Both the position numbers and the translations under genes were made by a program. Below are positions 3,106-31,900 of a DNA stretch of 32,000 bases, one piece after another. Positions within the stretch are counted from its first letter, which is position 1, and each line of letters begins with the position of its first letter. The notes beneath the pieces are model-generated. The model was given only the letters and a program-made list of their open reading frames with translations, ran no database searches and was not told the origin of the DNA. This DNA comes from Synechococcus sp. A15-28 (GTDB lineage Bacteria > Cyanobacteriota > Cyanobacteriia > PCC-6307 > Cyanobiaceae). Location of the stretch: assembly GCF_014280175.1 (NCBI RefSeq), contig NZ_CP047931.1, positions 1,470,001-1,502,000 of the forward strand, given 5' to 3'.

Positions 3106-3800
3106 ACTGAGGCAGACGGGCAACTCCTGGCGGAGAAATCGCAGGAATACACAGCCGGCTTCTGCCAGCTGAGCGGAATCTCCAGCAGGTCACGGCTACC
3201 GGTGATGGCCTGAGCCAGGAACAACAGCGCAGCCAGAACCGAGGCACTGATGTGCAGGCGCCTGAAGCGAAGATCCCGCAGGATCTCCTGCCGTGCCGCC
3301 AGGGACGCCAACATCAAGCCCGTCACAGCAACCCCCGCCCAGTAGTGGGACTGCCAGAAGTCGCCTGATAGGGGGTTGTCCGACAGTCGCCAGACTTCGG
3401 GCTGGGCGCCGAGGCTGAGCACGCCGGTCCAGGTGATCAGGCTGAAGGCGAGGCGCAGGGATGCGGTCTTGCAGCGGAGCAAGGCCACCAGGCTGGCCAC
3501 GGTGCCTGCCAGCACCATCAGCAGTTGCGCTGCCCGCCAGACCCCACCAGCGAATTCGGATGGGGTGGTTTTGGTGGCGATCACCACGGTGAGGGCCACC
3601 AGCACGATCACCACGACAGCCGCCGCAAGCCAACGGCCGAGATCGCTGTGATCGCTTCCCACTGTGACCGGGTGCTTCACCGAGGCCACCCTTCGCTGCC
3701 GTGTCTGCCAGGCCAGTCGCACCACCACACCGAGCAGGGGGTACACCAGCACCACAGCCAGAACCGGATGCAGGATCCAGAGCCAGTCGACGGTGGTCAT
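3090..3800 (-). CDS. DUF4079-family integral membrane protein
   Basis: Motifs HPVLAVVLVYP, LGAQPEVWRLSDNP..FWQSHYW and AQAITGSRDL are present, and the protein is a paralog of the ORF at 22027-22674. The start is placed at the ATG at 3798-3800, which overlaps the upstream stop as ATGA. The ORF track extends the ORF to 3812. Confidence 0.75.
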   Translation of the reverse strand: MTTVDWLWILHPVLAVVLVYPLLGVVVRLAWQTRQRRVASVKHPVTVGSDHSDLGRWLAAAVVVIVLVALTVVIATKTTPSEFAGGVWRAAQLLMVLAGTVASLVALLRCKTASLRLAFSLITWTGVLSLGAQPEVWRLSDNPLSGDFWQSHYWAGVAVTGLMLASLAARQEILRDLRFRRLHISASVLAALLFLAQAITGSRDLLEIPLSWQKPAVYSCDFSARSCPSASVQDAS

Positions 3801-4273
3801 GGGGATGTCCACAGGTCTCTGCCTGAGACCTTTTCAAAAGACACAGGACGTTGCTTGATGCGCCAGGCCAGTCGCAAATTGATGGCAATGGCCGCGGCCA
3901 GGGCGAGATGAAAAAGATTGCCATTGGGAATCCCCATTCCCTGGAACGCGATCCAGGTGTTCACCCCCAGCAAAAAGCTGTTGATCAGGAACCAGATCAC
4001 AGCCACACCAAGCCGAACGAAGCGGCGATCCCGCAGTACCAATCGGACGGCCAGGCCACAGGTCAAAAGACCGGGTATCAAGCCGATGGAGCTGTAACCG
4101 TGAAGGATGCGCATCGACGCATCTGAATGCGCGTGGCTGAACAGGGCCGCCAGGAGGTTGAGTGAAATCAAGGCTCCCGGGTAGGGGCCAAGGGCATGAC
4201 GCAGCGGAGCCGGCCCATTCATCCAGAGGGCACCACGCAGAAGCGGGTGATGGGGCTGCGCCGGCTGAGACAT
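3797..4273 (-). CDS. Hypothetical multi-pass membrane protein
   Basis: The 158-aa ORF has high-GC coding character and about four hydrophobic helices. It is translationally coupled to the DUF4079 gene. I recognise no family. Confidence 0.6.
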   Translation of the reverse strand: MSQPAQPHHPLLRGALWMNGPAPLRHALGPYPGALISLNLLAALFSHAHSDASMRILHGYSSIGLIPGLLTCGLAVRLVLRDRRFVRLGVAVIWFLINSFLLGVNTWIAFQGMGIPNGNLFHLALAAAIAINLRLAWRIKQRPVSFEKVSGRDLWTSP

Positions 4274-4334: not shown

Positions 4335-4388
4335 ATGGCATTTCGAAACTTTTGTCCAGCCCTGCTGAACAAGACCTACTTCAACTAG
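4335..4388 (+). pseudogene. Orphaned native 5' end of the class-V aminotransferase gene (MAFRNFCPALLNKTYFN-stop), left behind at attL
   Basis: An ATG at 4335 opens 17 codons that end in TAG at the island junction. Residues CPALLNKTYFN match residues 10-20 of the intact gene at 12776. Confidence 0.75.
4353..4387. repeat. attL core: 35-bp direct repeat (one mismatch) of 12803-12837
   Basis: TGTCCAGCCCTGCTGAACAAGACCTACTTCAACTA here matches TGTCCAGCCCTGCTCAACAAGACCTACTTCAACTA at 12803-12837. The sequence turns AT-rich immediately to the right. Confidence 0.8.
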
Positions 4389-4458
4389 GACGCACTACCA
4401 TTCTGACAAGCCTAGATCAACTGCAGCACAACGGCTTTTAGAGAATAGCGTTGAGAGC

Positions 4459-4480
4459 TTTAGTCACACCTTTAGTCACA
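4459..4480 (+). promoter_or_regulatory. Two TTTAGTCACA motifs spaced 12 bp start-to-start (candidate integrase arm-type sites, left arm)
   Basis: TTTAGTCACA occurs at 4459-4468 and 4471-4480. The same pair with the same spacing and orientation occurs at 12733-12754. Confidence 0.55.
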
Positions 4481-8217: not shown

Positions 8218-8391
8218 CTAGTGGCATTTGTAAGTAACAGTTGATGTCTTAGAGGGGTTCACAAGTATTTTCATGCCCAAGACGCGGTGATACGCCAGAC
8301 TTGGAGTCACTACTTCTCTTTGGCCGTTTTCAGCCCACTTCTTGAACTCCTCTACTTCTCGTTTGAAGGAGTCGGACATTGGTTCATTCAT
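8218..8391 (-). CDS. Possible 57-aa ORF, perhaps the tail of a decayed gene
   Basis: Hand translation gives MNEPMSDSFKREVEEFKKWAENGQ.... The frame stays open for about 100 nt upstream of the ATG without a start codon. Confidence 0.25.
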   Translation of the reverse strand: MNEPMSDSFKREVEEFKKWAENGQREVVTPSLAYHRVLGMKILVNPSKTSTVTYKCH

Positions 8392-8546
8392 TTCTTTGAA
8401 GCCATTGTATTTGTGTTGATGTGGACATAGATAGAAGGGAGACCAGAAGGTTGTCTCTTTGTTTCCTTCACTCCCATTTGCTTGAGCCTGACTTTTTCAC
8501 GTAGTTGATCTAAATAATTTGACACTGATAGATTGGTTTTAATTGT

Positions 8547-8816
8547 TTATTGATGATTGTGGTTGAACACCTTTACGGTCCTCCTCATAATCATCGAGCC
8601 AAACCCGGCCATCAATCCCATGCGTCTAGCTTCCTCCATGCGATACCTACGGCCAGTTCGTAGCCGTGGCATCGGTCCATAAACTCCAGGATTCTTCTCA
8701 AGACCAAATTCAAGCCACCAACCTTGGTTATTTGGAAGGTTCTGGGGTGGACTACATACCTTGCAGGTGCGTTCCATGGCAGCCTTGGCTGTCTTGGTGT
8801 CTATTCCTGCGTTCAC
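8547..8816 (-). CDS. Hypothetical protein, possibly a truncated zinc-ribbon protein
   Basis: The 89-aa ORF contains CKVC. An in-frame CQSC lies just upstream of the GTG start but has no canonical start codon ahead of it. Confidence 0.35.
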   Translation of the reverse strand: MNAGIDTKTAKAAMERTCKVCSPPQNLPNNQGWWLEFGLEKNPGVYGPMPRLRTGRRYRMEEARRMGLMAGFGSMIMRRTVKVFNHNHQ

Positions 8817-10204: not shown

Positions 10205-10619
10205 TTCGCTTGAAGGTTGTTGTATCCATACAGTATGAATAGTAATATCAAGATGTCCCTTCAATGGACATAGTGATATTCAGATTCAAGCTCGGTAAAA
10301 AGATCAAGTAAACCTATTTATTTAACTTGCTGTTTGTTTTGTCCATCCACTAAACAAAGGGTTGATAAGTAGAAACACAAAGCGTTTCCAAGATCAACCA
10401 GGAGTTAGTACAAGTTAAATACAATGTGTCTTTTGGTTTACTTGTCTTTGGGCGGTACTTACGAAATGTCCGTCTCGCTGCGCTCGACCTGGACATTAAT
10501 AAAGGGGATGGTTTGTCATCCCCAAAGGTACAAAAGGAAGAGTACACCCACTCCCTTCCCCCTGTATAACTGACCACTCTAATTAAACCCAGGTGGGGAC
10601 TGATGTCTTAGGGTTACCT

Positions 10620-11027
10620 CTAACTTGCCTGCTTAGCCCTAGCAGAAGCAGTGGCTGTGAAAAATGACATGGCATGTCTTACTGCATCAATCATGTCAGG
10701 GTGAACCACACGATAAATCCGATGTTTACTACCTTTAGATGACGGCATTAAGCCTTCAGCCTGAATAAAACCTTTGTCAAGGAGCAAATCAATGGCATTA
10801 ATTACCTTTGCTTTCCCCATACTAAGTGTTTCAGCAATGGCCTTGTGTGACCAATTTGTTGTGCCACCACAGTCTCTACGATCTTTCCATTTCCTGTACA
10901 TCCGTTTATCATATCGTAGATCCTGATACGCAGATTGATACATCAGGCTATACACGGCTACTGCTGCATAGCCCAATTTTGCTATTTCGGTAATTGGAGG
11001 AACGGTGTCTTTAAGAATAACTGTCAT
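10620..11027 (-). CDS. Winged-helix DNA-binding protein, candidate replication initiator or regulator of the island
   Basis: The 135-aa product has an HTH-like segment SHKAIAETLSMGKAKVINAIDLLLDKGFI. The iteron array begins 47 bp upstream of its start. Confidence 0.65.
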   Translation of the reverse strand: MTVILKDTVPPITEIAKLGYAAVAVYSLMYQSAYQDLRYDKRMYRKWKDRRDCGGTTNWSHKAIAETLSMGKAKVINAIDLLLDKGFIQAEGLMPSSKGSKHRIYRVVHPDMIDAVRHAMSFFTATASARAKQAS

Positions 11028-11073
11028 TTAGATAATACTTACTTGTGTTCTATTTGGAACGCATTAGTTGACT

Positions 11074-11247
11074 AGGTTGTGATCAGGGTCGGATCGTCAG
11101 ATCCCCCTATATAAGGGTCGGGTCTCCAGATCCCCCTGTATAAGTGTCGGATCGCCAGATCCCCCTGTATACGTGTCGGATTGCTGCTTCCCCCTATATA
11201 ACTGAGGGGTCTCTACTTCCCCCTGTATAAGGGTCGGATTGCGTGAC
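11074..11247. repeat. Iteron array: five full copies and one partial copy of a 29-bp unit (consensus about CCCCCTRTATAAGKGTCGGATYGC)
   Basis: The CCCCC blocks start at 11103, 11132, 11161, 11190 and 11219, an exact 29-bp period. A half copy lies at 11074-11102. Confidence 0.85.
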
Positions 11248-11537
11248 GGTATTGAACCTGGCTGGCCACTCAGAGACGCCATACGCGTCTGTATTGATTA
11301 CTAGATCCTTCTGTGACGGAATCCCTTTGTTTTGCATTTTGGATACCTTGTAGAGGCATATAGGGGTCTCTGGCGCTTTTGTGATTGTGACTCCTTTGAC
11401 TTGACGTGCTCACAATGCCGCCTGAACCCGATTACAAGTAATTGCTAGTGATTGTGAAATTGATTGAACTTTTGTAGTATTTGAGCAAGCTTACGAATGA
11501 TGCTGGACAGCCTTGTCCATTTTGTCTCTTCAAAGTC

Positions 11538-12731
11538 TTAGAGAAGATTCACAGCTCGCTCCAATTCACTCCAAGGAGTAGCGCCATATGCCATAGAAAT
11601 AGAATTAGGTGTGTGGCCAAGCAAAGTAACGACAACAGCCTCATTCATGTTATGTGCTCTCAATATGGTTGCAGCTCTGTCTCTAAAACCTTTGGGAGTT
11701 ATTCCAACTATTTTCCTACACGGCTTTGAAAGATTGACTCCCCAACGCTTATTAGCCCCTTGGTACTGACCCGGCCACAAAAGATCTTTCCTTTCGCGCA
11801 TCTCAATAGACAATGACTTCAATCTTGGATGAATTGGAATTGACCTCGCAGAGGAATCGCTCTTCAAGGGTCTTAACGCATTGGGTCGGATCAGTATCCG
11901 GTCATCAAGCAGGTCTTCTGCTTGCAAGCCAGCAATCTCAGCAAGTCGAGCACCAGTGAAATAAAGGAACTTGAAAATCTCTATCTGTTGACCCGACCCA
12001 TTCCACTGTGATGGATCGGTGATTGTGACATCAAGTTTTCTGACTTTAACGACCTTGATCCGTGTATTTAAGCCCTTGAATATATGGGTGCAATCGGGTC
12101 GTAGTTCACAAAGCACTGACCAGAGTCCACAAAGAAATGCGAGACGCGTTTTGACAGTTGAAGGACTTAGACGTGACAGCAACGAGGAGCGATAAGCAAC
12201 GGCGTGTTGGCGTGAAGCAGACGTTGGGTACGTGACTGCAGAGTGTGCCAAGAAATCGTCCAAGGCAGCCTTCCAAGCGATCTCCGTCCGTGCTGCAGGT
12301 GACTTCAGTGCCTTGGCCTGCTGGATCAGCTCTTCTTTGGAAAGGTGGTCTGGTGGCTGCTTCTCACCCTTCAAAATCGCTCTGTATCTGGCCGCTTGAT
12401 CGAGAGTTATCGACCCTTCCTCAACCTCAACATCACAGCCAGTAAGCAGCGTTTCAACAATTTCTGGATCAGACAGATCAAACCGTTGAGGAACCAAATC
12501 AATTAGCTCGTCGCCAGTCAGTGAAACCTCATTGCGAGCCTCAGCAATCAGTCGATCTGTCTTTGCTGCAAATGCAGCTGAGAGCCTCTGTGCGACGCGG
12601 TAGGTCGATCCAGCAGCCTCAACCCAAATCGTTTTGCCTATGACTGGCTGAACGTCCTTGGGAACGCCACGCTGCAACTGGTAACCATTGCGGGCCTGAC
12701 GCACGTATGTCGGATGCTTCCGAAAAGGCAC
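11538..12731 (-). CDS. int: Tyrosine recombinase / phage-type integrase
   Basis: The 397-aa product has box I (FTGARLAEI), LKSDSSARSIPIH, box II (GFRDRAATILR...LLGH) and a C-terminal Tyr (SMAYG). The gene abuts attR. Confidence 0.9.
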   Translation of the reverse strand: MPFRKHPTYVRQARNGYQLQRGVPKDVQPVIGKTIWVEAAGSTYRVAQRLSAAFAAKTDRLIAEARNEVSLTGDELIDLVPQRFDLSDPEIVETLLTGCDVEVEEGSITLDQAARYRAILKGEKQPPDHLSKEELIQQAKALKSPAARTEIAWKAALDDFLAHSAVTYPTSASRQHAVAYRSSLLSRLSPSTVKTRLAFLCGLWSVLCELRPDCTHIFKGLNTRIKVVKVRKLDVTITDPSQWNGSGQQIEIFKFLYFTGARLAEIAGLQAEDLLDDRILIRPNALRPLKSDSSARSIPIHPRLKSLSIEMRERKDLLWPGQYQGANKRWGVNLSKPCRKIVGITPKGFRDRAATILRAHNMNEAVVVTLLGHTPNSISMAYGATPWSELERAVNLL

Positions 12732-12732
12732 C

Positions 12733-12754
12733 TTTAGTCACAGTTTTAGTCACA
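12733..12754 (+). promoter_or_regulatory. Two TTTAGTCACA motifs spaced 12 bp start-to-start (candidate arm-type sites, right arm), plus a partial TAGTCA at 12758-12763
   Basis: The motif pair is identical to 4459-4480. It lies between the integrase start and the substitute aminotransferase start, so it may also overlap both promoters. Confidence 0.55.
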
Positions 12755-12775
12755 CCCTAGTCAGCCAAAAGCCAG

Positions 12776-13957
12776 ATGGACACAAACAAGCTGCGATCAC
12801 AATGTCCAGCCCTGCTCAACAAGACCTACTTCAACTACGGCGGCCAAGGCCCCCTGCCGACGCCATCGCTGGAGGCGATCCAGGCCAGCTGGCGGCGCAT
12901 TCAGGAGCTGGGCCCCTTCACCACGGATGTATGGCCATTCATCGGGGCCGAGGTGTCCAGCACCCGGCGGCGCCTCGCCCAGCTCTGCGGCGTGGCCCCC
13001 CATCGCCTGGCCCTCAGTGAAAACGTCACGAGCGGTTGTGTGCTGCCGCTGTGGGGACTGCCCTTCGACAGTGGCGATCGTCTGCTGATCAGCGACTGCG
13101 AACACCCTGGGGTTGTGGCCGCCTGCGTGGAGCTGGCCCGGCGTGAGGGGCTGACGATCGACACCCTGCCGGTGAAGCAGCTGCGCGGCGATCAACCCAG
13201 CACCGATGCGGGCGTGATGGACGCCCTGGAGCAGAGCCTCACCCCCCGCTCGCGGCTGGTGGTGCTGAGTCATCTGCTCTGGAACACGGGCCAGATCATG
13301 CCCATCCCCGCCGTCGCGGAACGGCTCGCCCAGCACCCCCAGGCGCCCTATCTGCTGGTGGATGCCGCCCAGAGTTTCGGGCAGATTCCTGTGCAGGACG
13401 CTGCTGCCGCCGCTGACATCTATGCCTTCACCGGCCACAAGTGGGCCTGTGGCCCGGAAGGCCTGGGTGGCGTGGCCCTGTCGGAACGGGTGCTGAACGA
13501 AGGCCAACCTACCGTGATCGGCTGGCGCAGCTTGCAGGATGAAAGCAAAGCGGACCTGAGCAGCTCCGATCCGTTCCACCACGACAGCCGCCGTTTTGAA
13601 GTCGCCACCAGCTGCGTGCCCCTGATGGCGGGCCTGCGCTGTTCGCTGGAGTTATTGGACCAGGAAGGATCGGCGGAAACCCGACTGATGCGGATCCGTC
13701 AGCTCAGTGGTGATCTCTGGAGCGGACTGCGGGAGATGCCTGGAGTCAAGCCTCTGATGGAGGTGCCACCGGCCAGTGGCCTGGTGAGCTTTCAGCTGAG
13801 CTGTGACGCAGCTCCTGCAGAGGTGGTGCAGCAACTTGGCCAACAGGGCCTGTGGATCCGCGACCTGGCGGACCCCAGCTGCCTGCGCGCCTGCACCCAT
13901 GTGACCACAACTGAGGCTGAAACGGAGGCACTGACGACGGCAATTGCACGATATTGA
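12776..13957 (+). CDS. Class-V aminotransferase / cysteine-desulfurase-like PLP enzyme
   Basis: The 393-aa product contains YFNYGGQGP, LLVDAAQSFG and FTGHKWACGPEG (PLP lysine). The first 9 codons and the upstream region are island-derived. Confidence 0.85.
   Translation: MDTNKLRSQCPALLNKTYFNYGGQGPLPTPSLEAIQASWRRIQELGPFTTDVWPFIGAEVSSTRRRLAQLCGVAPHRLALSENVTSGCVLPLWGLPFDSGDRLLISDCEHPGVVAACVELARREGLTIDTLPVKQLRGDQPSTDAGVMDALEQSLTPRSRLVVLSHLLWNTGQIMPIPAVAERLAQHPQAPYLLVDAAQSFGQIPVQDAAAAADIYAFTGHKWACGPEGLGGVALSERVLNEGQPTVIGWRSLQDESKADLSSSDPFHHDSRRFEVATSCVPLMAGLRCSLELLDQEGSAETRLMRIRQLSGDLWSGLREMPGVKPLMEVPPASGLVSFQLSCDAAPAEVVQQLGQQGLWIRDLADPSCLRACTHVTTTEAETEALTTAIARY
12803..12837. repeat. attR core: direct repeat of 4353-4387
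   Basis: See the attL entry. The core lies inside codons 10-21 of the aminotransferase gene. Confidence 0.8.
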
Positions 13958-16159: not shown

Positions 16160-16768
16160 ATGGCTCGATACCGCGGCCCTCGTCTGAGGATCACGCGGCG
16201 CTTGGGAGACCTCCCTGGTCTCACCCGGAAGGCCGCAAAGCGGTCCTATCCCCCCGGTCAGCACGGCCAAGCCCGTCGCAAGCGCTCTGAATACGCAATC
16301 CGTCTCGAAGAAAAGCAGAAGCTTCGCTTCAACTACGGCATCTCCGAGCGTCAGCTCGTGCGTTACGTGAAGAAAGCGCGCGCCCAGGAGGGTTCCACCG
16401 GAACCAACCTGCTCAAGCTGCTCGAGAACCGTCTCGACAATGTCTGTTTCCGCCTGGGCTTCGGTCCCACCGTGCCCGGCGCCCGTCAGCTGGTGAACCA
16501 CGGCCACGTCACCGTCAACGGCCGCGTCACCGATATCGCCAGCTACCAGTGCAAGGCCGGCGATGTGATCGCCATCCGCGAGCGCAAGTGCAGCAAGCAG
16601 CTGGCTGAAGCCAACCTCGAGTTCCCGGGTCTGGCCAACGTGCCGTCCCACCTGGAACTGGACAAGGCCAAGCTCAACGCCAAGGTCACCGGTCGCTGTG
16701 AACGCGAATGGGTTGCCCTGGAGATCAACGAACTGCTGGTGGTGGAGTACTACTCCAGAAAGGTTTAA
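16160..16768 (+). CDS. rpsD: 30S ribosomal protein S4
   Basis: [22 protein letters not shown]...[10 protein letters not shown] matches S4. The true ATG is 14 codons inside the track ORF. The last codons and the stop are supplied by island-side sequence. Confidence 0.95.
16749..16764. repeat. 16-bp direct repeat ACTACTCCAGAAAGGT at the rpsD 3' end (also at 20099-20114)
   Basis: The match is an exact 16-mer. The sequence turns AT-rich right after it here. At 20099 it is followed by a stop codon and a strong terminator. Confidence 0.7.
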
Positions 16769-16827
16769 GTTCGGTTCATAACGAGAGCTCTCAGCTTTTT
16801 ACGAGTACCCATTCAAACTTTATTCAA

Positions 16828-16872
16828 TCTCCTGATACCGTTCAATAAAAACGGTATCAGGAGACTTTTTTT
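16828..16872 (+). terminator. Strong rho-independent terminator now serving rpsD
   Basis: A 15-bp perfect stem, TCTCCTGATACCGTT / AACGGTATCAGGAGA, is followed by a T7 run. Confidence 0.8.
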
Positions 16873-16904
16873 GATTTTTTCCTTTTAGTTAAACACCATT
16901 TTGT

Positions 16905-18326
16905 CTAATTAATTAGCGTCTGATACATTACCCTTGAAAGCAATCTAATGCCATCGTCATCTTTCAAAGTTTGAAAATCAGGCATATTATTGTAAAAAAT
17001 TGACAAATCTTCTAGCAATTCAGGATGAAATTGGAAAGTAAACGATTTTCGTATTTTTTGAGTTTGAAAATCTAAATAATTTATGCAAGTAGCTGCTACT
17101 TCTGTGCAGACTTCTCCATTTATACGAGTTGAGCAAACAATTTCAACAGATGTTGGTAGATTCAAAATCCAAGATAGATCTGATATCAATATCTTCTTTC
17201 TTATAGGATAAACTGCCTTGTGCAATTCTCCGAATGCCCAATTAGCAAAAAGAATTGCTTCCTGGTTAACTACATCGCTATGAAACATTTCTATATGGAG
17301 GTTTTTTTCATATGTAATAAATTTTTCGACAACACCCAGTTCATGCTCGTGAGATAGCTCATGACACATAAGTAAATTTGAAAATTCATCACTAGGATGC
17401 AGTCCAGAATGCGAATATTTCTTTAGGTCTACTTTGCCGACCTCAGGCTTATGGTTAAGCGCAACTGCAAAACAACTATCATTCCAGCCTTTTGCAACTA
17501 TCTTTTCATTTCTATAAACACATAAACTTTCTCCAACCAAGATAATTTCCGTACACTTCTTCCTGAGGTTGTCTAGATAGTAATTACTATCTTCAGAATT
17601 AATCAAAAATGATAAACAGTCATCAGTCGCTCTTTTGATTATCTCTATATGAGCCTGAGCAGCAAGTTGATGACCTAGGCAAATAAATATAGCAGGAGAT
17701 GAGTTTGAATCCCTTGAAAGTATAATTTCCTCAGCAACTTCTTGCAAATCTTCTAGCTTAATACTTGTATCATCAAAGCTTTTGCAATCTTTTAAAGTTG
17801 GATAACCCCCCTCTACGAAACACATAATACAGTTTTTAATCAATTCTATTAAAAGTTCATTATTTAAAGGACCAGCCTCCCAGAGTGGTATCAATATTGA
17901 ATCGCAGTCGGCTATATATTGAGACAAGTACGCAATATTTATAGATGCTTTAACCTCATTCCCATATGGATTTACGCCGACATGCTTAGCGGGCTCTATT
18001 ATACAAATAGAATTTCTATAAATTCCAGGATATTTTAGAATTTCTTTTAAATCATTATTCGATCTTACAACTCTTTCCAAAGGACCTTCTTCTCCCCATT
18101 GACTATTGGCAAGTAAATCCAATTTCTTATCATAAAAAGGTTCAAGCAAACTATTTGAATCTCTATCATTTATGAAATCGGCCAAAAGAAATTCAATACT
18201 TGTTCGATTTGATTTTCCAGGCCTGAAAAAGCCAGCCATAGCTTTAAATACTAACATTTTCCATATTAGCTTCTTTGTCAACCGTATTTTAGTATCTAGT
18301 ACGACAGAGTGGCATAGCATTAGCAC
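16905..18326 (-). CDS. Atypical class-I glutamine amidotransferase-like protein (473 aa)
   Basis: A nucleophile-elbow motif AIFICLGHQ lies near residue 216 and FQFHPE near residue 434. The gene is very AT-rich. The spacing and the N-terminal extension are much larger than in canonical GATase1 domains. The start is uncertain (GTG 18326 or ATG 18320). Confidence 0.7.
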   Translation of the reverse strand: MLMLCHSVVLDTKIRLTKKLIWKMLVFKAMAGFFRPGKSNRTSIEFLLADFINDRDSNSLLEPFYDKKLDLLANSQWGEEGPLERVVRSNNDLKEILKYPGIYRNSICIIEPAKHVGVNPYGNEVKASINIAYLSQYIADCDSILIPLWEAGPLNNELLIELIKNCIMCFVEGGYPTLKDCKSFDDTSIKLEDLQEVAEEIILSRDSNSSPAIFICLGHQLAAQAHIEIIKRATDDCLSFLINSEDSNYYLDNLRKKCTEIILVGESLCVYRNEKIVAKGWNDSCFAVALNHKPEVGKVDLKKYSHSGLHPSDEFSNLLMCHELSHEHELGVVEKFITYEKNLHIEMFHSDVVNQEAILFANWAFGELHKAVYPIRKKILISDLSWILNLPTSVEIVCSTRINGEVCTEVAATCINYLDFQTQKIRKSFTFQFHPELLEDLSIFYNNMPDFQTLKDDDGIRLLSRVMYQTLIN

Positions 18327-18364
18327 TTTAATGATAATTAAAACGTAATCGATAGTGAAATAGA

Positions 18365-18544
18365 ATGTCTATTTATTGCTTATCTAGTGTGTCAAGCGTC
18401 CACTCACAAGGGCGAGCAATCAAGATCTCGTTGACCACTGTATTGGGAGCTGCTGAGGCATTTATTGCCAAGTACGCAGAGTGGATCAATAGTCACGGCG
18501 TTGATCTCACCTCGGCTCAACCAAGCGAATGGGCGGCTAGCTAA
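18365..18544 (+). CDS. Possible 59-aa ORF
   Basis: Hand translation gives MSIYCLSSVSSVHSQGRAIKISL...EWAAS. It is below the track cutoff and has no recognisable motifs. Confidence 0.25.
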   Translation: MSIYCLSSVSSVHSQGRAIKISLTTVLGAAEAFIAKYAEWINSHGVDLTSAQPSEWAAS

Positions 18545-19822: not shown

Positions 19823-19901
19823 GGTTTGTCCCTCAGAAAATTCCAAGTCCCCGTTCCGTGGCTTGGAGTGTCTGCGCCCCTGCGTACAGAGGTGAACGTT
19901 T

Positions 19902-19917: not shown

Positions 19918-20098
19918 GACAGATCATACGCCCGGGTCAAGCCCATGAACGTGCGTAACAACCTCGCTTAATCGCCCGCGCAGGTTTGTCGCTATTTGTC
20001 TTTGTTGAGCCAAGTGCCTGATGGGACAAGGCATATACTCAAACCCTACTCAAACTCTAAAAACAGGGTCAAAAAGCAATGCAGCACTGAAAACGTGG

Positions 20099-20118
20099 AC
20101 TACTCCAGAAAGGTCTGA
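20099..20118 (+). pseudogene. Remnant A of the rpsD 3' end (..YSRKV-stop)
   Basis: ACTACTCCAGAAAGGTCTGA encodes the same C-terminal residues as 16749-16768, with a TGA stop. Confidence 0.7.
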
Positions 20119-20148
20119 TCCGTTTCAAGACCTCTGTGTCCCCCGATG

Positions 20149-20181
20149 CGCAACCCTGGGTTCAGGGTTGCGTTTTTCTTT
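20149..20181 (+). terminator. Orphaned rho-independent terminator following rpsD remnant A
   Basis: The stem is CGCAACCCTG-GGTT-CAGGGTTGCG, followed by TTTTTCTTT. Confidence 0.75.
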
Positions 20182-20312
20182 GGCTGATCCCCAGATACTG
20201 CAGGCGCTCACAAGCCGGGACGGTGCAGAAAACTTTTCCAAACTCCAGCCCCCATTAACCGAAAAAGGTGGCAGGACTTTTTCTTAAGGCAAGAGAATCT
20301 GATTCCAAGCAG

Positions 20313-20504
20313 TCACTCGGCGATTTTCAAAGACTGCTCTAAATGATTAACGTGTCTTTCCAGGGTGATTTCACGACGGTGCATCTCAAGCTCACGCTCA
20401 TGGGTTTTCTCATCGATCCTGGTGCGGCCGCCATTCATCATCTCCGAGTAAGTCAGAGCTCTTGGCTTTTTTCGAGGAAGGTCATGTTCGTGCATCCAAG
20501 TCAC
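20313..20504 (-). CDS. Hypothetical small charged protein
   Basis: The 63-aa ORF has a GTG start or an ATG at 20495. The ACGTAATGACC motif lies 15 nt upstream. Confidence 0.35.
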   Translation of the reverse strand: MTWMHEHDLPRKKPRALTYSEMMNGGRTRIDEKTHERELEMHRREITLERHVNHLEQSLKIAE

Positions 20505-20663
20505 TGATTAATCGACTAACGTAATGACCAACCTAGTGGCACTCAAGGAAATGTCACCCTAATGCACCAATTCAGACCAGAATCTTAAGAATTCGGCTCA
20601 GACAATTCAAACAAGCGCCCAACACATTAATTCAAGACCTATCAACCAAGTGAGCTCATCCCC

Positions 20664-21785
20664 TTGAACAGTGACGCCACCACAAACCTTCGTTCAAGCG
20701 CACTTAGGCGCATTGATTTGAACATCAAGCCTTACATAAAAAGTGATGACATAATTGCCGCTTGGCAAATCATTAGCACGATAATCCCGTTAATCATATG
20801 CTGCATTGCAATTGGCAATATCACCAGTCAGCTAACATTAGTTTCAGTCATTCTAACCCCAGCACTGTTTCTATTAATAATCCTATTTTTGAGTAGAAGC
20901 TTTTCGTTGATGCACGACTGCGGTCACCACAGCTTATTCAGGTCAAAAACTGCTAATCGGATTGCCGCCTTTGCCTTGAGCATTATCCATGCAATGCCTC
21001 ATCACCCCTGGTCTAGGGGCCATGCATTTCACCACAAACACAATGGTAATTGGAACCGCTACAGAGGCCCGTCCGCTTTAACAACGCTTCGCGAGTACAA
21101 GGCAATGAACAAAGGCTCTCAATTCATTTACCAACTCTTGCGGCACCCCATATTACTTCTTCCGGGAGGTTTTTACTATCTCGTTATTAAACCAAGAGCT
21201 GCGCTACTCCTTGGACTCATTGAGTTTGTCGTCAAAGCAGTAGCCGATGGATTTCGCAAACTTTCAAACGGACATAACTTCAGCATACGTTCGTTTTTAA
21301 ACAATCACAAATCAAGCTTCTTTTATACCAAAGAGGAAGTTTACGACACTATTGCCAATACCACGTGCGTTGCACTCGCCTGGTACTTTATTGGGAGCAC
21401 GATTGGTCACTGGCATTTCTGGATTTTATACATCTCAGCCATGAGCGTCAGTGCAGCGATCATGATTGCTGTATTTTTTATTCAACACAACTTTCCAGGA
21501 TCCTATACTAGCAGCGACGAAAATTGGGACTACTTTAAAGGCGCCATCGAAGGCTCATCTTTTCTCATTATGCCTCGTTTCCTAAACTGGTTTACAGCAG
21601 ATATTGCTTACCATCATGTTCACCATTTATCCGAAAGAATCCCTAATTACCGCCTACGCATGTGCCATGAACACAACGAGAAAAAATTCGGCAGCGTTAG
21701 GCGACTGCATCTGCATGAATTCCGGAACTGTTTTTCATTGATCCTTTGGGACGATGAAACCCTTCAACTCACCTCAATCGAATGA
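20664..21785 (+). CDS. Membrane fatty-acid desaturase family protein
   Basis: Three histidine boxes are present: HDCGH, HAFHH (HAFHHKHN) and HHVHH. Several transmembrane segments are present. The start (TTG) is uncertain. Confidence 0.85.
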   Translation: MNSDATTNLRSSALRRIDLNIKPYIKSDDIIAAWQIISTIIPLIICCIAIGNITSQLTLVSVILTPALFLLIILFLSRSFSLMHDCGHHSLFRSKTANRIAAFALSIIHAMPHHPWSRGHAFHHKHNGNWNRYRGPSALTTLREYKAMNKGSQFIYQLLRHPILLLPGGFYYLVIKPRAALLLGLIEFVVKAVADGFRKLSNGHNFSIRSFLNNHKSSFFYTKEEVYDTIANTTCVALAWYFIGSTIGHWHFWILYISAMSVSAAIMIAVFFIQHNFPGSYTSSDENWDYFKGAIEGSSFLIMPRFLNWFTADIAYHHVHHLSERIPNYRLRMCHEHNEKKFGSVRRLHLHEFRNCFSLILWDDETLQLTSIE

Positions 21786-21930
21786 AAATGGCTTTGATAT
21801 CAAAGCAATATGCGAAAAAAAGCATTCATGTTGACTGCATTAACGGAAGAATTTATGCTCAATTAAAATATTGAGTTCTAAACACTCCGGACGCCGAGAG
21901 CGCTAGTGGGTGGCCCTGAGGACTGACGCA

Positions 21931-22026
21931 TGTTGGTGGTGAGGCATACCCACCCGAAGTTCCGGTGCGCTTCGACACCCTTGTGCCCCCGATGCGCGAC
22001 GCTGGTGAAAGGACTGCAATTTTTTT
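21931..22026 (+). repeat. Remnant B: decayed copy of the rpsD tail plus a terminator-like region
   Basis: TGTTGGTGGTGAGGCATACCCACCCGAAGTT resembles rpsD TGCTGGTGGTGGAGTACTACTCCAGAAAGGTT. TGTGCCCCCGATGCGCGAC matches TGTGTCCCCCGATGCGCAAC at 20135. Both are followed by a T-run and TTGGCTGA. Confidence 0.45.
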
Positions 22027-22917: not shown

Positions 22918-23033
22918 ACAAAATCAAGCTCATCAATTCAACAAAAACAGGAGGTTGAGCATTGTTCAAAGAACACTGTTAACGTCCTCGTGCTCGGCCG
23001 TGACATCCTCAAACTGATTGGCGAAGTCAAGGT

Positions 23034-23240
23034 ATGCCAACAATCTCTCGCCAGAACGCACAAAGTCAGCAGAATTGTCAATTCAGTCATGAGTCACCCG
23101 ACATGCCCAACTGGATCAAGCGCTCTTTGTCAGCTGGTGTCGCAGCGGGCACAGCACTCTTCACATTTGCTGTGAACGTCGCCTGGAATGTCTGCGCTGT
23201 AGTTGGGGCATCCATCCTCATCGGCGCAGTATTCGTCTGA
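23034..23240 (+). CDS. Small hydrophobic protein (alternative start at 23103, MPNWIKRSL...)
   Basis: The C-terminal half, AGVAAGTALFTFAVNVAWNVCAVVGASILIGAVFV, is membrane-like. Its stop overlaps the next ATG. Confidence 0.4.
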   Translation: MPTISRQNAQSQQNCQFSHESPDMPNWIKRSLSAGVAAGTALFTFAVNVAWNVCAVVGASILIGAVFV

Positions 23241-23374
23241 TGGGGGATTTACTGAAAGGACTGAAAACAGCATTGATGACATCGACTGTTGCTATTTTCC
23301 TGTTTGTTGCACCAGTTTTCGCCACTATCATCAAAGGGTTGATAACCGCGACAAGCATTGTTTTTGGCGTTTAG
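23240..23374 (+). CDS. 44-aa hydrophobic peptide, translationally coupled to the preceding ORF
   Basis: Hand translation gives MGDLLKGLKTALMTSTVAIFLFVAPVFATIIKGLITATSIVFGV. The TGATG overlap is at 23238-23242. It is below the track cutoff. Confidence 0.35.
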   Translation: MGDLLKGLKTALMTSTVAIFLFVAPVFATIIKGLITATSIVFGV

Positions 23375-23499
23375 GCTCCATCGACAAAAAGATCTGCATG
23401 TCCTGGGGTGCCTCAACTTACGCACTCCCAATACTTAAAAAGAAACTCATATTTCTTCATCAAGCAAATAATTCAGTAGGGTGCTTTCTTTGAACTGAC

Positions 23500-23691
23500 T
23501 TGTTGCCTGAGAAGACCACAATTCATGGGCAGTGGGTAGACATCTCCTCAAATAGTCGCATTATTTGTCTAATTAATCTACCCTTCGCTAACCACCCGAA
23601 CAAAGGACCAGGCTTTGTTTATGATTTCTTTTCAACTAAAGAGGAAGAAGACCTGCTGAGTCACGAGACGTTTTTCAAAGGGATCAAATGA
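23500..23691 (+). CDS. Hypothetical small protein
   Basis: The 63-aa ORF starts with TTG and overlaps the next ORF as ATGA. Confidence 0.3.
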   Translation: MLPEKTTIHGQWVDISSNSRIICLINLPFANHPNKGPGFVYDFFSTKEEEDLLSHETFFKGIK

Positions 23692-23870
23692 ATAAAAAAT
23701 TCATCATCTTTTGCGCCTTAGCCATCCCTTTGATCGTCCTTGTGTTGATCAAGGTGACCCAGAAATCCGAACCTTGTCCAACGATGGAACAAATCAAGGC
23801 CGCCAAACAATCAAATCCTGAACTATTTGATCGCTATCTTCATGGCTTTGAATACCAGCAATGCCGGTGA
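23688..23870 (+). CDS. Small signal-anchored or secreted protein
   Basis: MNKKFIIFCALAIPLIVLVLIKV forms an N-terminal hydrophobic segment. The product is 60 aa. Confidence 0.45.
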   Translation: MNKKFIIFCALAIPLIVLVLIKVTQKSEPCPTMEQIKAAKQSNPELFDRYLHGFEYQQCR

Positions 23871-24226
23871 GGGATCAAGAAAGATTTTAGTTTTCACATT
23901 CTTTTAAACGGCTTTATGTTGAGATGACCACGCATTGTGCCTGACGCCTCGCTTGACTTAAGTCACTGGCATCCATCCATCCGATGACAACGTCGCCAAG
24001 AGCACGGTTGAGCAGCTTCTTGGCACACCGCTGGAAGGAAATGGGGGAACCCTCGCTGATGCGACAGCACAAATACTCATTACTGTTGAGAAGCATTCGT
24101 GCAGAAAAACGGTTGGTCGCCTTGGAATTACTTGATCTCATGCTTGAAGATACCTGCCAACAACTCGACAGCATCTGAATCGACGTATGACATTGACCAT
24201 CAGTTTCCCCTGATCAAGTCACACTG

Positions 24227-30413: not shown

Positions 30414-31900
30414 ACGTGCAGCGTCCACTGATGGTGCTGGGGACCTCCAGTGGTGCCGGCAAATCCCTGATGACCGCCGCCCTCTGCCGGGTGCTGCGCC
30501 GCCACGGTGAACAACCCCTGCCGTTCAAAGGGCAGAACATGAGCAACAACGCCTGGGTGGATGCCGATGGCGGCGAGATGGCGTACTCCCAGGCGATGCA
30601 GGCCTGGGCTGCCGGTCTGGAGCCCTGCTGTGCGATGAATCCGGTGCTGCTCAAGCCGCGGGGCGACAGCACCAGTGAGGTGATCCATGGCGGCCGCAGC
30701 GTTGGCCTGGCCCGAGCAGAGCATTACTACCGCGACTGGTTCCGTCCCGGCTGGCAGGCGATCCGCAGCGGGTTGAGCGAGCTGCAGCAGCGGTGGCCCC
30801 AAGGCCGGCTGGTGCTGGAGGGGGCCGGCAGTCCGGTGGAGGTGAATCTGCAGCGACGGGACCTCACCAACCTGCGACTGGCTCAGTACCTCCGCGCCAA
30901 CTGCCTGCTGGTGGCGGACATCGAACGCGGCGGCGTCTTCGCCCAGATCGTCGGCACGCTGGCACTGTTGCGCCCGGTGGAACGGCACTTGATCAAAGGC
31001 ATCCTGATCAACCGTTTCCGCGGGCGACGGGAGCTGTTCGATGAAGGGCGCAGCTGGCTGGAACAACACACAGGCGTTCCGGTGCTTGGCGTCATGCCCT
31101 GGCTGAACGATCTGTTCCCACCGGAGGATTCCCTCGATCTGCTGGAGCGCAAACCGAGCCGAGGGCCCACCGATCTGGAGATCGCGGTGCTGAAGTTGCC
31201 GTCAATCAGCAACTTCTCCGATCTGGACCCATTGGAAGCAGAACCCAGCCTGCGGCTGCGCTGGGTACACCCTGGCGACAGCCTCGGAAGCCCTGATGCT
31301 GTGCTGCTGCCCGGAAGCAAACAGACCCTGCGGGACCTCGAGGCTCTGCGCAGCAGCGGACTGGACCGTCAACTGGTGGAATTCACCAGTCGTGGAGGCT
31401 CACTGCTGGCGATCTGCGGTGGCATGCAGCTGATCGGGCGCGCGTTGCACGACCCAGATCAACTGGAGGGAGGCGATGGGGTTGGGCCCTGGCCCGGGCT
31501 CGGGCTGTTGCCCCTCACCACGCGCTTCGGTGGAACAAAGGCCCTGCGGCAACGCGAGGTGCAAGCGCTCTGGCCGGAAACAACCCCGATCTCCGGCTTC
31601 GAACTGCACCACGGCAGCACCCAGGCCAGCGATGACCTGCTGCCGCTCTGCCATGAGCCGGGTCTCGGCTGGTGGAGCTCAACGCCATCTGGTGGGACCA
31701 TCATCGGCACTTATCTGCATGGTCTTCTCGACAACGGCCCCTGGCGGCGTCATTGGCTGAATCAACTGCGCAAACGCAAGGGGCTGACGGACCTGGCCAC
31801 CAACCTGCCGAACCATGGGGAGCACCGCCATCAACTGCTCGAACGCCTGGCCGATGCCTTCGAGCAACATGTGGACCTCTCACCCCTGTTGCAGTCGTGA
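30410..31900 (+). CDS. cobQ: Cobyric acid synthase
   Basis: [20 protein letters not shown] is the P-loop-like CobQ N-domain. The C-terminal GATase3 domain contains ICGGMQ and HG. The product is 496 aa and the start is uncertain (TTG 30410 or GTG 30416). Confidence 0.9.

Follow-up and report, generated by a model that had tools for sequence, protein, structure and literature searches.

A winged-helix gene and an upstream 29-bp repeat array form a portable cassette, putatively an origin with its initiator, in integrative islands of marine Synechococcus

A stretch of 32,000 nucleotides from Synechococcus sp. A15-28 (assembly GCF_014280175.1, contig NZ_CP047931.1, positions 1,470,001 to 1,502,000 of the forward strand; hereafter the window) contains an integrative island of 8.4 kb with low G+C content, 40-bp attachment (att) repeats at both ends and a tyrosine integrase at one end. 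The gene next after the integrase encodes a 135-aa winged helix-turn-helix (wHTH) protein, and the 510-bp spacer between the two genes holds a tandem array of 29-bp units. The gene, the array and the sites around them make up a small cassette that has not been described before and is carried by integrative islands of marine Synechococcus. For comparison 56 related loci were examined, with 33 non-redundant upstream regions used for counting 8-mers and 32 non-redundant loci for strict copy counts. The features of the cassette in the window are as follows.

10494–11393, minus strand: portable wHTH cassette of about 0.9 kb, with 93% identity to locus L004
10504–10523, minus strand: hairpin followed by a T run past the end of the wHTH gene, resembling a terminator (hairpin search)
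10555–10573, minus strand: isolated repeat unit just past the wHTH stop codon, in the orientation of the array (repeat search)
10620–11027, minus strand: gene of the 135-aa winged-helix protein, ATG at 11027
11028–11044, minus strand: A/T-rich -10-like segment (TAAGTATTAT) that ends 5 nt before the ATG, with AAGTAnnTAT in all loci
11045–11062, no strand: 18-bp palindrome between array and ATG, here GCGTTC...GAACAC, a putative operator over the wHTH promoter
11085–11242, minus strand: tandem array of a half unit and five 29-bp units (repeat searches, Tandem Repeats Finder)
11274–11290, no strand: small perfect hairpin AGACGC-N5-GCGTCT inside the cassette, conserved in L044
11358–11375, plus strand: inverted degenerate copy of the repeat core (TATAGGGGTCTC) (repeat search)

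The array is strictly periodic. CCCCCTRTATAA starts at 11103, 11132, 11161, 11190 and 11219 in exact 29-bp phase with 0–1 mismatch; with up to two mismatches allowed it was matched seven times in the window, whereas shuffled sequences gave a mean of 2.08 and 0 of 100 reached seven. Tandem Repeats Finder (TRF) placed the array at 11085–11239, with a period of 29, 5.3 copies, 75% matches and a 58-bp super-period, and an independent repeat search agreed on the register. Read in the sense of the gene, the conserved 23-nt part of the unit is aTCC-N5-c(g/t)TATA(C/T)AGGG(G/A)GA. No structured RNA or single-stranded DNA element was found in the array (no Rfam match there; fold z-score -1.1).

A preliminary description of this DNA had reported five tandem units in exact 29-bp phase plus a half unit, which motif count, shuffles and TRF all reproduced, but it had overlooked the two further copies at 10555–10573 and 11358–11375. 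The single unit past the stop codon is also kept at about +458 in L004, L005 and L006, and the inverted degenerate copy is shared with L004 and L044. Of the CCC and GGG arms described for each unit, the CCCCC side is conserved across loci, whereas the GGG arm occurs in only 2–3 of the five units and is not conserved elsewhere. The distance between array and gene, given before as 47 bp, has to be corrected to about 58 bp, measured from the end of the half unit to the ATG. Separately, TCACAATCAC was found twice between the integrase stop codon and the array, at 11381–11390 and 11448–11457; the portable cassette has its upstream edge at the second of these, and the motif lies at about -335 in 12 of the 33 upstream regions.

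The 18-bp palindrome was likewise overlooked in the preliminary description. In every locus with upstream sequence, GTGTTC-N6-GAACAC is followed directly by AAGTAnnTAT, 5–15 nt before the ATG, and GAACACAA was recovered by 8-mer counting in 32 of 33 loci at about -23. Since the left arm of the palindrome coincides with the -35 position, with a -10-like hexamer rich in A/T after it, a dimer bound to the palindrome would cover, and so occlude, the wHTH promoter. The mRNA of the gene is probably leaderless or nearly so, and the gene appears to be monocistronic with the terminator behind it. By comparison of loci, the palindrome is the site most securely tied to the wHTH protein, since a related palindrome also lies upstream of the gene of a phage homologue (L171, described below). 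A scan of IMG/VR for the palindrome returned matches at the number expected by chance. A half-site common to repeat and palindrome was considered and rejected, as a weak GACAC resemblance in some window-type units is not conserved.

The palindrome also suggests a purely regulatory explanation, according to which the wHTH protein is an autoregulated transcription factor of the island that acts on the promoter palindrome and replicates nothing. The repeats would then be auxiliary operator, activator or titration sites, or would insulate the gene from integrase read-through. This would fit the single universally conserved site over the -35 and -10 positions and the related palindrome that accompanies the L171 phage gene. 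For an operator, a series of five to nine 29-bp sites in tandem, 60–400 bp upstream of the promoter, would nevertheless be unusual, and the seemingly monocistronic gene with its terminator leaves no evident target for the regulator but itself.

The repeat was recovered beyond the window without reference to its sequence there: unbiased counting of 8-mers found TATACAGG in 25 of the 33 upstream regions at about -145, and TRF detected arrays with a period of 26–30 bp upstream of the gene in 14 loci. The core TATAYARGRR occurs at 3.1 per kb upstream of wHTH homologues on the sense strand, as against 0.029 per kb elsewhere in the same loci, a more than 100-fold difference. Its orientation is constant, pointing at the gene, with the exception of the one inverted copy in window-type loci. 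In a locus-weighted logo, conservation extends over 23 nt, aTCC-N5-c(g/t)TATACAGGG(a/g)GA, and then falls straight to zero; the spacers of one locus resemble each other and are unrelated to those of other loci. Such a conserved 23-nt core between diverged spacers is the mark of a repeated binding site that is under selection and expands as units are duplicated in tandem. The association of the array with the wHTH gene, proposed earlier from the window, thus held in related loci, and did so independently of the integrase.

Strict copy numbers per locus (n = 32) were 0 in seven loci, 1 in nine, 2 in six, 3 in four, 4 in two, 5 in two and 6 in two. With looser matching, up to about nine units were counted, and related arrays comprise 2–9 units. 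Ten contigs that encode one identical wHTH protein (P0252, a cluster-mate of the window protein) have integrase–wHTH spacers of 394, 422, 452 or 510 nt. No clean covariation was seen between residues of the recognition helix and the presence of the repeat. On balance, the repeats are probably binding sites of the wHTH protein.

Changes in copy number by 29-bp steps between otherwise identical elements would also be expected if a single promoter-side site had been amplified by slippage or unequal recombination and the array itself had no function. The duplication of whole units including the spacer within a locus, the 58-bp super-period and the many loci with 0–1 copy agree with such drift. It does not account well for the retention of the 23-nt core while the spacers diverged completely between loci, nor for arrays that are independent in at least four cassette lineages, with periods of 26–34 bp; together these argue for selection on the repeated sites, and we regard a functionless array as quite improbable.

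Homologues of the wHTH protein number about 300, almost all from marine metagenomes and a few from Synechococcus single-cell genomes. In all loci with at least 500 nt of upstream sequence, the gene immediately upstream, in the same direction, encodes a tyrosine integrase; at least four integrase lineages with no relation to one another are represented. L004, for example, has a 98%-identical wHTH protein and the same array beside an unrelated 461-aa integrase. Because the wHTH gene and the array travel together with at least four unrelated integrase lineages, the comparison indicates that they are a separate module, independent of the integrase. In this family of 7–9 kb cargo islands nothing but the cassette accompanies the integrase consistently, and it is swapped among unrelated integrases.

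L004 (OZSS01003329.1) also carries, at 3598–4147, an attP-type junction: a 45-bp core links an L044-like distal end to the integrase side, and the whole contig is of low G+C content. By its sequence this junction comes from a sister element that was either excised as a circle or present in tandem, which indicates that circular or tandem forms occur in nature; it is the single indirect indication that bears on autonomous replication. An attP junction of a window-type element was not found among the loci retrieved. As a side observation, a 5.9 kb contig labelled as part of a Crocinitomicaceae metagenome-assembled genome (L003, PBXW01000126.1) carries an integrase of the L001 type (89% identity) together with the wHTH cassette; it is almost certainly a fragment of a Synechococcus island mis-binned into a Bacteroidota genome.

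For the protein itself, an AlphaFold2 model was built on a 26-sequence alignment. It shows a single winged-helix domain with two helices before and two more after it (predicted local distance difference test, pLDDT, 77.5), in agreement with the earlier designation of the 135-aa open reading frame (ORF) as a winged-helix protein. The best fold matches in BFVD are phage 'HTH domain' and replication-initiator proteins, and DnaD-N appears at rank 30 among the solved-structure neighbours. The wHTH family has no Pfam model, and an exhaustive search with the family hidden Markov model (HMM) over 1.84 billion representative sequences yielded only 134 relatives, almost all of 60–250 aa. The family HMM reaches P0245 and P0247 at about 1e-4; these proteins of 380–390 aa contain two HTH_36 domains and DnaD_N, and match phrog_270 at 1e-28. 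In hhalign, the probability was 90% over the helix-turn-helix.

Among 26 family members compared with PHROG, nearly all of the weak matches were to replication-initiator families: 15 matched phrog_391, eight phrog_678, seven phrog_270 and three a DnaD-like family, while the MarR family was matched by one, at 0.038. The window protein matches phrog_391 ('replication initiation O-like') below threshold, at 0.0018, the phage homologue does so at 1.2e-7, and the distant members P0177 and P0180 match phrog_270 at about 3e-8. No match to the Pfam domains MarR, MarR_2 or GntR was found in the window protein, and against the PDB the family profile reached MarR at E = 0.56. From these profile comparisons the protein is not an ordinary MarR or GntR regulator; clustering with such regulators, which the preliminary description had named among the results that together would count against it, was not seen, and the consistent remote matches are only to phage initiators of the O-like, DnaD-like and HTH_36 kinds. 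Because the weak but consistent HMM matches go there, the best placement of the family is next to the DNA-binding domain of initiators of the O-like and DnaD-like kinds, among which it is not a demonstrated member. Matches to initiator and not to regulator families speak against a purely regulatory role; in favour of that role stand the nearest solved structures, which are wHTH regulators, and the annotation of one cluster member by one source as 'MocR family regulator'. One relative of 397 aa (P0123, L170 1344–2537) consists of two tandem wHTH family domains and lies beside a transposase, an arrangement that recalls RepA-type initiators.

As the best reading we tentatively propose that the repeats are iteron-like binding sites and that the cassette is an origin together with its initiator, for use by the excised island circle. 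In order, it contains direct repeats of the 23-nt site, separated by about 6 nt of free spacer, then the putative operator palindrome over a promoter that is probably near-leaderless, the wHTH gene, one more repeat and a terminator. In the integrated state, the gene would be auto-repressed by wHTH dimers bound to the palindrome. Once the integrase has excised the 8.4 kb circle, the wHTH protein would load cooperatively on the direct repeats, and the resulting nucleoprotein complex would recruit the host replisome, or possibly that of a phage. The circle would thereby gain short-term plasmid-like replication or maintenance, as does Salmonella genomic island 1 (SGI1).

The question addressed by this proposal is how islands of marine picocyanobacteria persist after excision and move between cells. 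To our knowledge, plasmids are almost absent from marine Synechococcus and Prochlorococcus, prophages are few and conjugation is not known. A cassette that acts as a replicon would account for the survival of excised circles until they are transferred; it would also offer a very small native vector backbone for picocyanobacteria, and its winged-helix initiator would be the smallest known. If the function is regulatory, the wHTH protein would be the master switch of these islands.

The closest experimentally proven counterpart is SGI1, in which RepA (IncN2/N3-like) and an oriV with four 16-bp iterons lie beside int/xis, and which replicates transiently after excision, at 4–8 copies (PMC7826253). 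Like SGI1, the element described here integrates, has its tyrosine recombinase at one end and, adjoining this, a candidate initiator gene with a direct-repeat array, and the SGI1 iteron consensus GGGGGHRATTATGCGY combines a G-run with an A/T-rich part, as does CTTATAYAGGGGG here. The two differ in the protein, which in SGI1 is a full-size member of the RepA_C family and here a 135-aa single wHTH of an unannotated family. They differ also in the origin: the oriV of SGI1 lies downstream of repA and has an AT-rich region, an inverted repeat and DnaA boxes, whereas here the array lies upstream and neither a DNA unwinding element (DUE) nor DnaA boxes were seen.

Iteron replicons such as pPS10, pSC101, R6K, F and P1 consist of direct repeats, an inverted-repeat operator over the rep promoter and the rep gene; extra repeat copies lie beyond the gene (incA, incC) and the initiator is a winged-helix protein. 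The same succession of repeats, palindrome over the promoter, winged-helix gene and extra copy beyond the gene is seen in the window, so that the iteron-replicon layout proposed in the preliminary description is supported. At least three direct repeats lie near the gene in such plasmids, and the window array has 5.3 units. Unlike the single domain found here, however, plasmid initiators have two winged-helix domains (Rep_3 and related families); their iterons are 17–22 bp long at a spacing of about 22 bp, compared with a period of 26–34 bp here; and their operator half-sites belong to the iteron, whereas the GTGTTC/GAACAC arms lie outside the repeat core. Lambda O, for its part, recognises four repeats in which C/G arms flank an A/T centre. 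With O-like and DnaD-like proteins (HTH_36, Phage_rep_O, DnaD_N) the wHTH is the only region of consistent remote similarity; those proteins are about 300 aa long, have a C-terminal domain that binds the helicase loader, and have their iterons inside the gene, unlike the family described here.

A considerable number of observations weigh against an origin with its initiator. On the side of the protein, the single wHTH is not accompanied by a second winged-helix domain in the model, and the chain ends about 25 residues past the wing, with no C-terminal domain to recruit a helicase or its loader. Every Pfam match of the window protein is under its cut-off (HTH_36 at 15.3 bits against a cut-off of 25), and neither Pfam nor NCBIfam gave a match to the Rep_3, RepA_C or RPA families. 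The neighbours among solved structures are generic wHTH proteins (MarR, ArsR, TrmB and TFE; E about 1e-3, TM score about 0.45–0.5). No homologue was found among the 72,556 plasmids of PLSDB with three queries, and no primase, helicase, polymerase or other replication gene was found in the window island, L044, L045, L046 or L172–L181; the family scans in this respect agree with the earlier remark that no primase or helicase is visible in the island.

On the side of the DNA, the only universally conserved site is the palindrome and not the repeat. The two have no conserved half-site in common, in which they depart from canonical iteron/operator pairs, and since the palindrome stays with the gene everywhere, including in phage, the wHTH protein may bind the palindrome alone. 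Half of the loci (16 of 32) have 0–1 copy of the repeat, seven of them none, and the array period is 26–34 bp and not about 22 bp. The contigs with the identical P0252 protein (the L172–L181 set) have 1, 2, 3 or 5 units in 29-bp steps, a polymorphism to which short-read collapse of repeats could contribute; such change beside an identical protein argues against an essential origin, which normally would not tolerate it. There is no conserved AT-rich block beside the array that could serve as an unwinding element, the most AT-rich 40-mer being the promoter or the 3' end of the integrase gene, and no DnaA box was seen by the array or among the conserved 8-mers.

Two of these points, the free number of repeats (0–9 overall, and 1–5 with an identical protein) and the lack of DUE and DnaA boxes, also count in favour of a purely regulatory cassette. 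We judge each of the two less likely than not, the regulatory role being nearly as likely as an origin with its initiator.

Tandem direct repeats upstream of a small DNA-binding gene also occur in systems that retain DNA without initiating its replication, and the array with its binding protein could be centromere-like and hold the circle in the cell, in the manner of TubR/tubC or StbA/stbS. TubR is a wHTH protein that coats direct repeats, and StbA needs no NTPase of its own. No partition NTPase was found in any island examined, no similarity to TubR, ParR or StbA appeared in any scan made, and many elements have no array; maintenance by tethering is thus regarded as very improbable.

The only homologues outside islands are encoded on contigs of T7-like marine phages. 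In AP013546.1 (Autographiviridae; 31208–31633, 41% identity) the gene is the first of the late operon, directly before terL, and in L171 (6195–6902) a 235-aa homologue lies in the early region, two genes after the phage RNA polymerase. The primary origin of T7 lies at the corresponding place in that phage. In L171 the homologue is preceded, at a distance of about 150 nt, by GTCCACATAGGACAC, which has the same centre as the island palindrome and a symmetric change of the arms from GTTC/GAAC to GTCC/GGAC. It was considered as a promoter of the phage RNA polymerase and rejected, as it occurs once in L171 and another repeated element looks like the promoter of that phage. No array is present at the phage homologues in AP013546 and L171. 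The phage-borne relatives P0135, P0150 and P0152 have a conserved acidic C-terminal extension.

These phage links allow the cassette to be seen as a device that exploits an infecting T7-like cyanophage, by recruitment of its replisome, as a TerS/pac-like packaging module, or through promoters for the phage RNA polymerase. The position of the phage genes, before terL or after the RNA polymerase, and the orientation of all units toward the gene would suit it. So would the repeat unit itself, in gene sense aTCC-N5-cgTATACAGGGAGA, as its 23 nt ending in TATA(C)AGGGAGA resemble T7-group promoters in their -17 to +6 span and initiation region. A search of Syn5, P60, S-CBP2, uvMED S37-C6 and L171 showed no enrichment of the unit motif, however, for which reason units as T7-type promoters were rejected and kept only as a low-probability alternative. 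There was no TerS match in PHROG or Pfam, no family member was found among 2.9 million IMG/VR contigs, and the phage homologues lack the array, so that a phage-directed device is considered improbable. In its more specific form the islands would be satellites of T7-like cyanophages, with a single-domain wHTH protein and promoter-mimicking units that draw the phage RNA polymerase or replisome onto the excised island, which we think quite improbable; if true, podovirus infection would lead to excised islands being replicated, and perhaps packaged, at the expense of the phage.

The island is a block of low G+C content (41–47%) at about 4.35–12.85 kb, as against 63–67% in the flanks of the window, and a repeat search of the window found a 40-bp direct repeat, 93% identical, at its borders. 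The features outside the cassette that concern integration are as follows.

4353–4392, no strand: attL core; the left 40-bp copy is the displaced original 5' end of a class-V aminotransferase gene
4458–4480, plus strand: CTTTAGTCACA doublet, candidate arm-type site of the integrase, left end (repeat search)
11538–12731, minus strand: tyrosine integrase of 397 aa, DUF6538 N-terminus and Phage_integrase, facing inward from attR
12732–12754, plus strand: CTTTAGTCACA doublet, candidate arm-type site, right end (repeat search)
12803–12842, no strand: attR core, inside codons 10–22 of the class-V aminotransferase gene 12776–13957

As the left copy is the original start of the gene and the right copy lies in its codons 10–22, the island has entered a protein-coding gene at its 5' end. 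It provides the aminotransferase with a new start codon and with its first nine codons (12776–12842), and presumably with a promoter as well. The same junction occurs in L021, L026, L172, L173, L175 and L177 and was seen in many metagenomic contigs. At attL (4336–4392) the original start persists as a 17-codon stub that ends in a stop codon.

CTTTAGTCACA has four matches in the window compared with 0.3 expected. The doublets beside the att cores vary by integrase lineage, being CTTTAGTCACA in the window type, TACAAACTTTG in the L004 type and TCGCAGAACTC in the L001 type, and because their sequence changes with the integrase they are probably arm-type sites of the integrase and not sites of the wHTH protein. 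In the other lineages they lie at 4097–4118 (L004) and 3238–3277 (L001). A role of the wHTH protein as a classical excisionase was rejected, given that no copy of the repeat or palindrome lies near 4353–4480 or 12732–12842, that the doublets co-vary with the integrase and that the protein accompanies at least four integrases. The array was similarly rejected as a set of integrase arm sites, being 1.56 kb from the core and identical beside an unrelated integrase.

The preliminary description had compared the island with the tycheposons of Prochlorococcus, which are known to form circular and tandem junctions (Hackl et al., bioRxiv 10.1101/2020.12.28.424599), and this likeness held only loosely. 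Both are cargo islands of about 8 kb in marine picocyanobacteria, with an inward-facing tyrosine recombinase at one end and a small adjoining module. Tycheposons, however, target tRNA genes, whereas the target here is the 5' end of the aminotransferase gene and no tRNA gene was found in the window; their replication module, moreover, is a primase, helicase or polymerase of 2–4 kb, as against a 0.9 kb wHTH cassette only. The island thus lacks the hallmark primase or helicase and resembles the 'cryptic' half of the elements in that study (bioRxiv 10.1101/2020.12.28.424599).

Family scans identified a fasciclin protein, an ion channel and DUF1651 among the cargo of the island. ORFs of 89, 45 and 57 aa at 8218–8816, of which the latter two overlap by 4 nt, are common to islands with different integrases (L001, L004, L006, L018, L024, L042 and L044). 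No family matches were obtained for the small conserved island ORFs (89, 57, 45 and 63 aa); those at 8218–8816 may be further backbone genes, for example an excisionase or a toxin-antitoxin pair.

Elsewhere in the window, further patches of low G+C content (35–45%) with no integrase lie at 16500–18500, 20000–22000 and 23000–24000. They carry a GATase-like ORF of 473 aa, a fatty-acid desaturase and DUF4079, and may be older island remnants or flexible genes. A glutamine-II riboswitch aptamer, typical of marine picocyanobacteria, was identified on the minus strand at 19842–19901 (Rfam RF01704, 58.5 bits).

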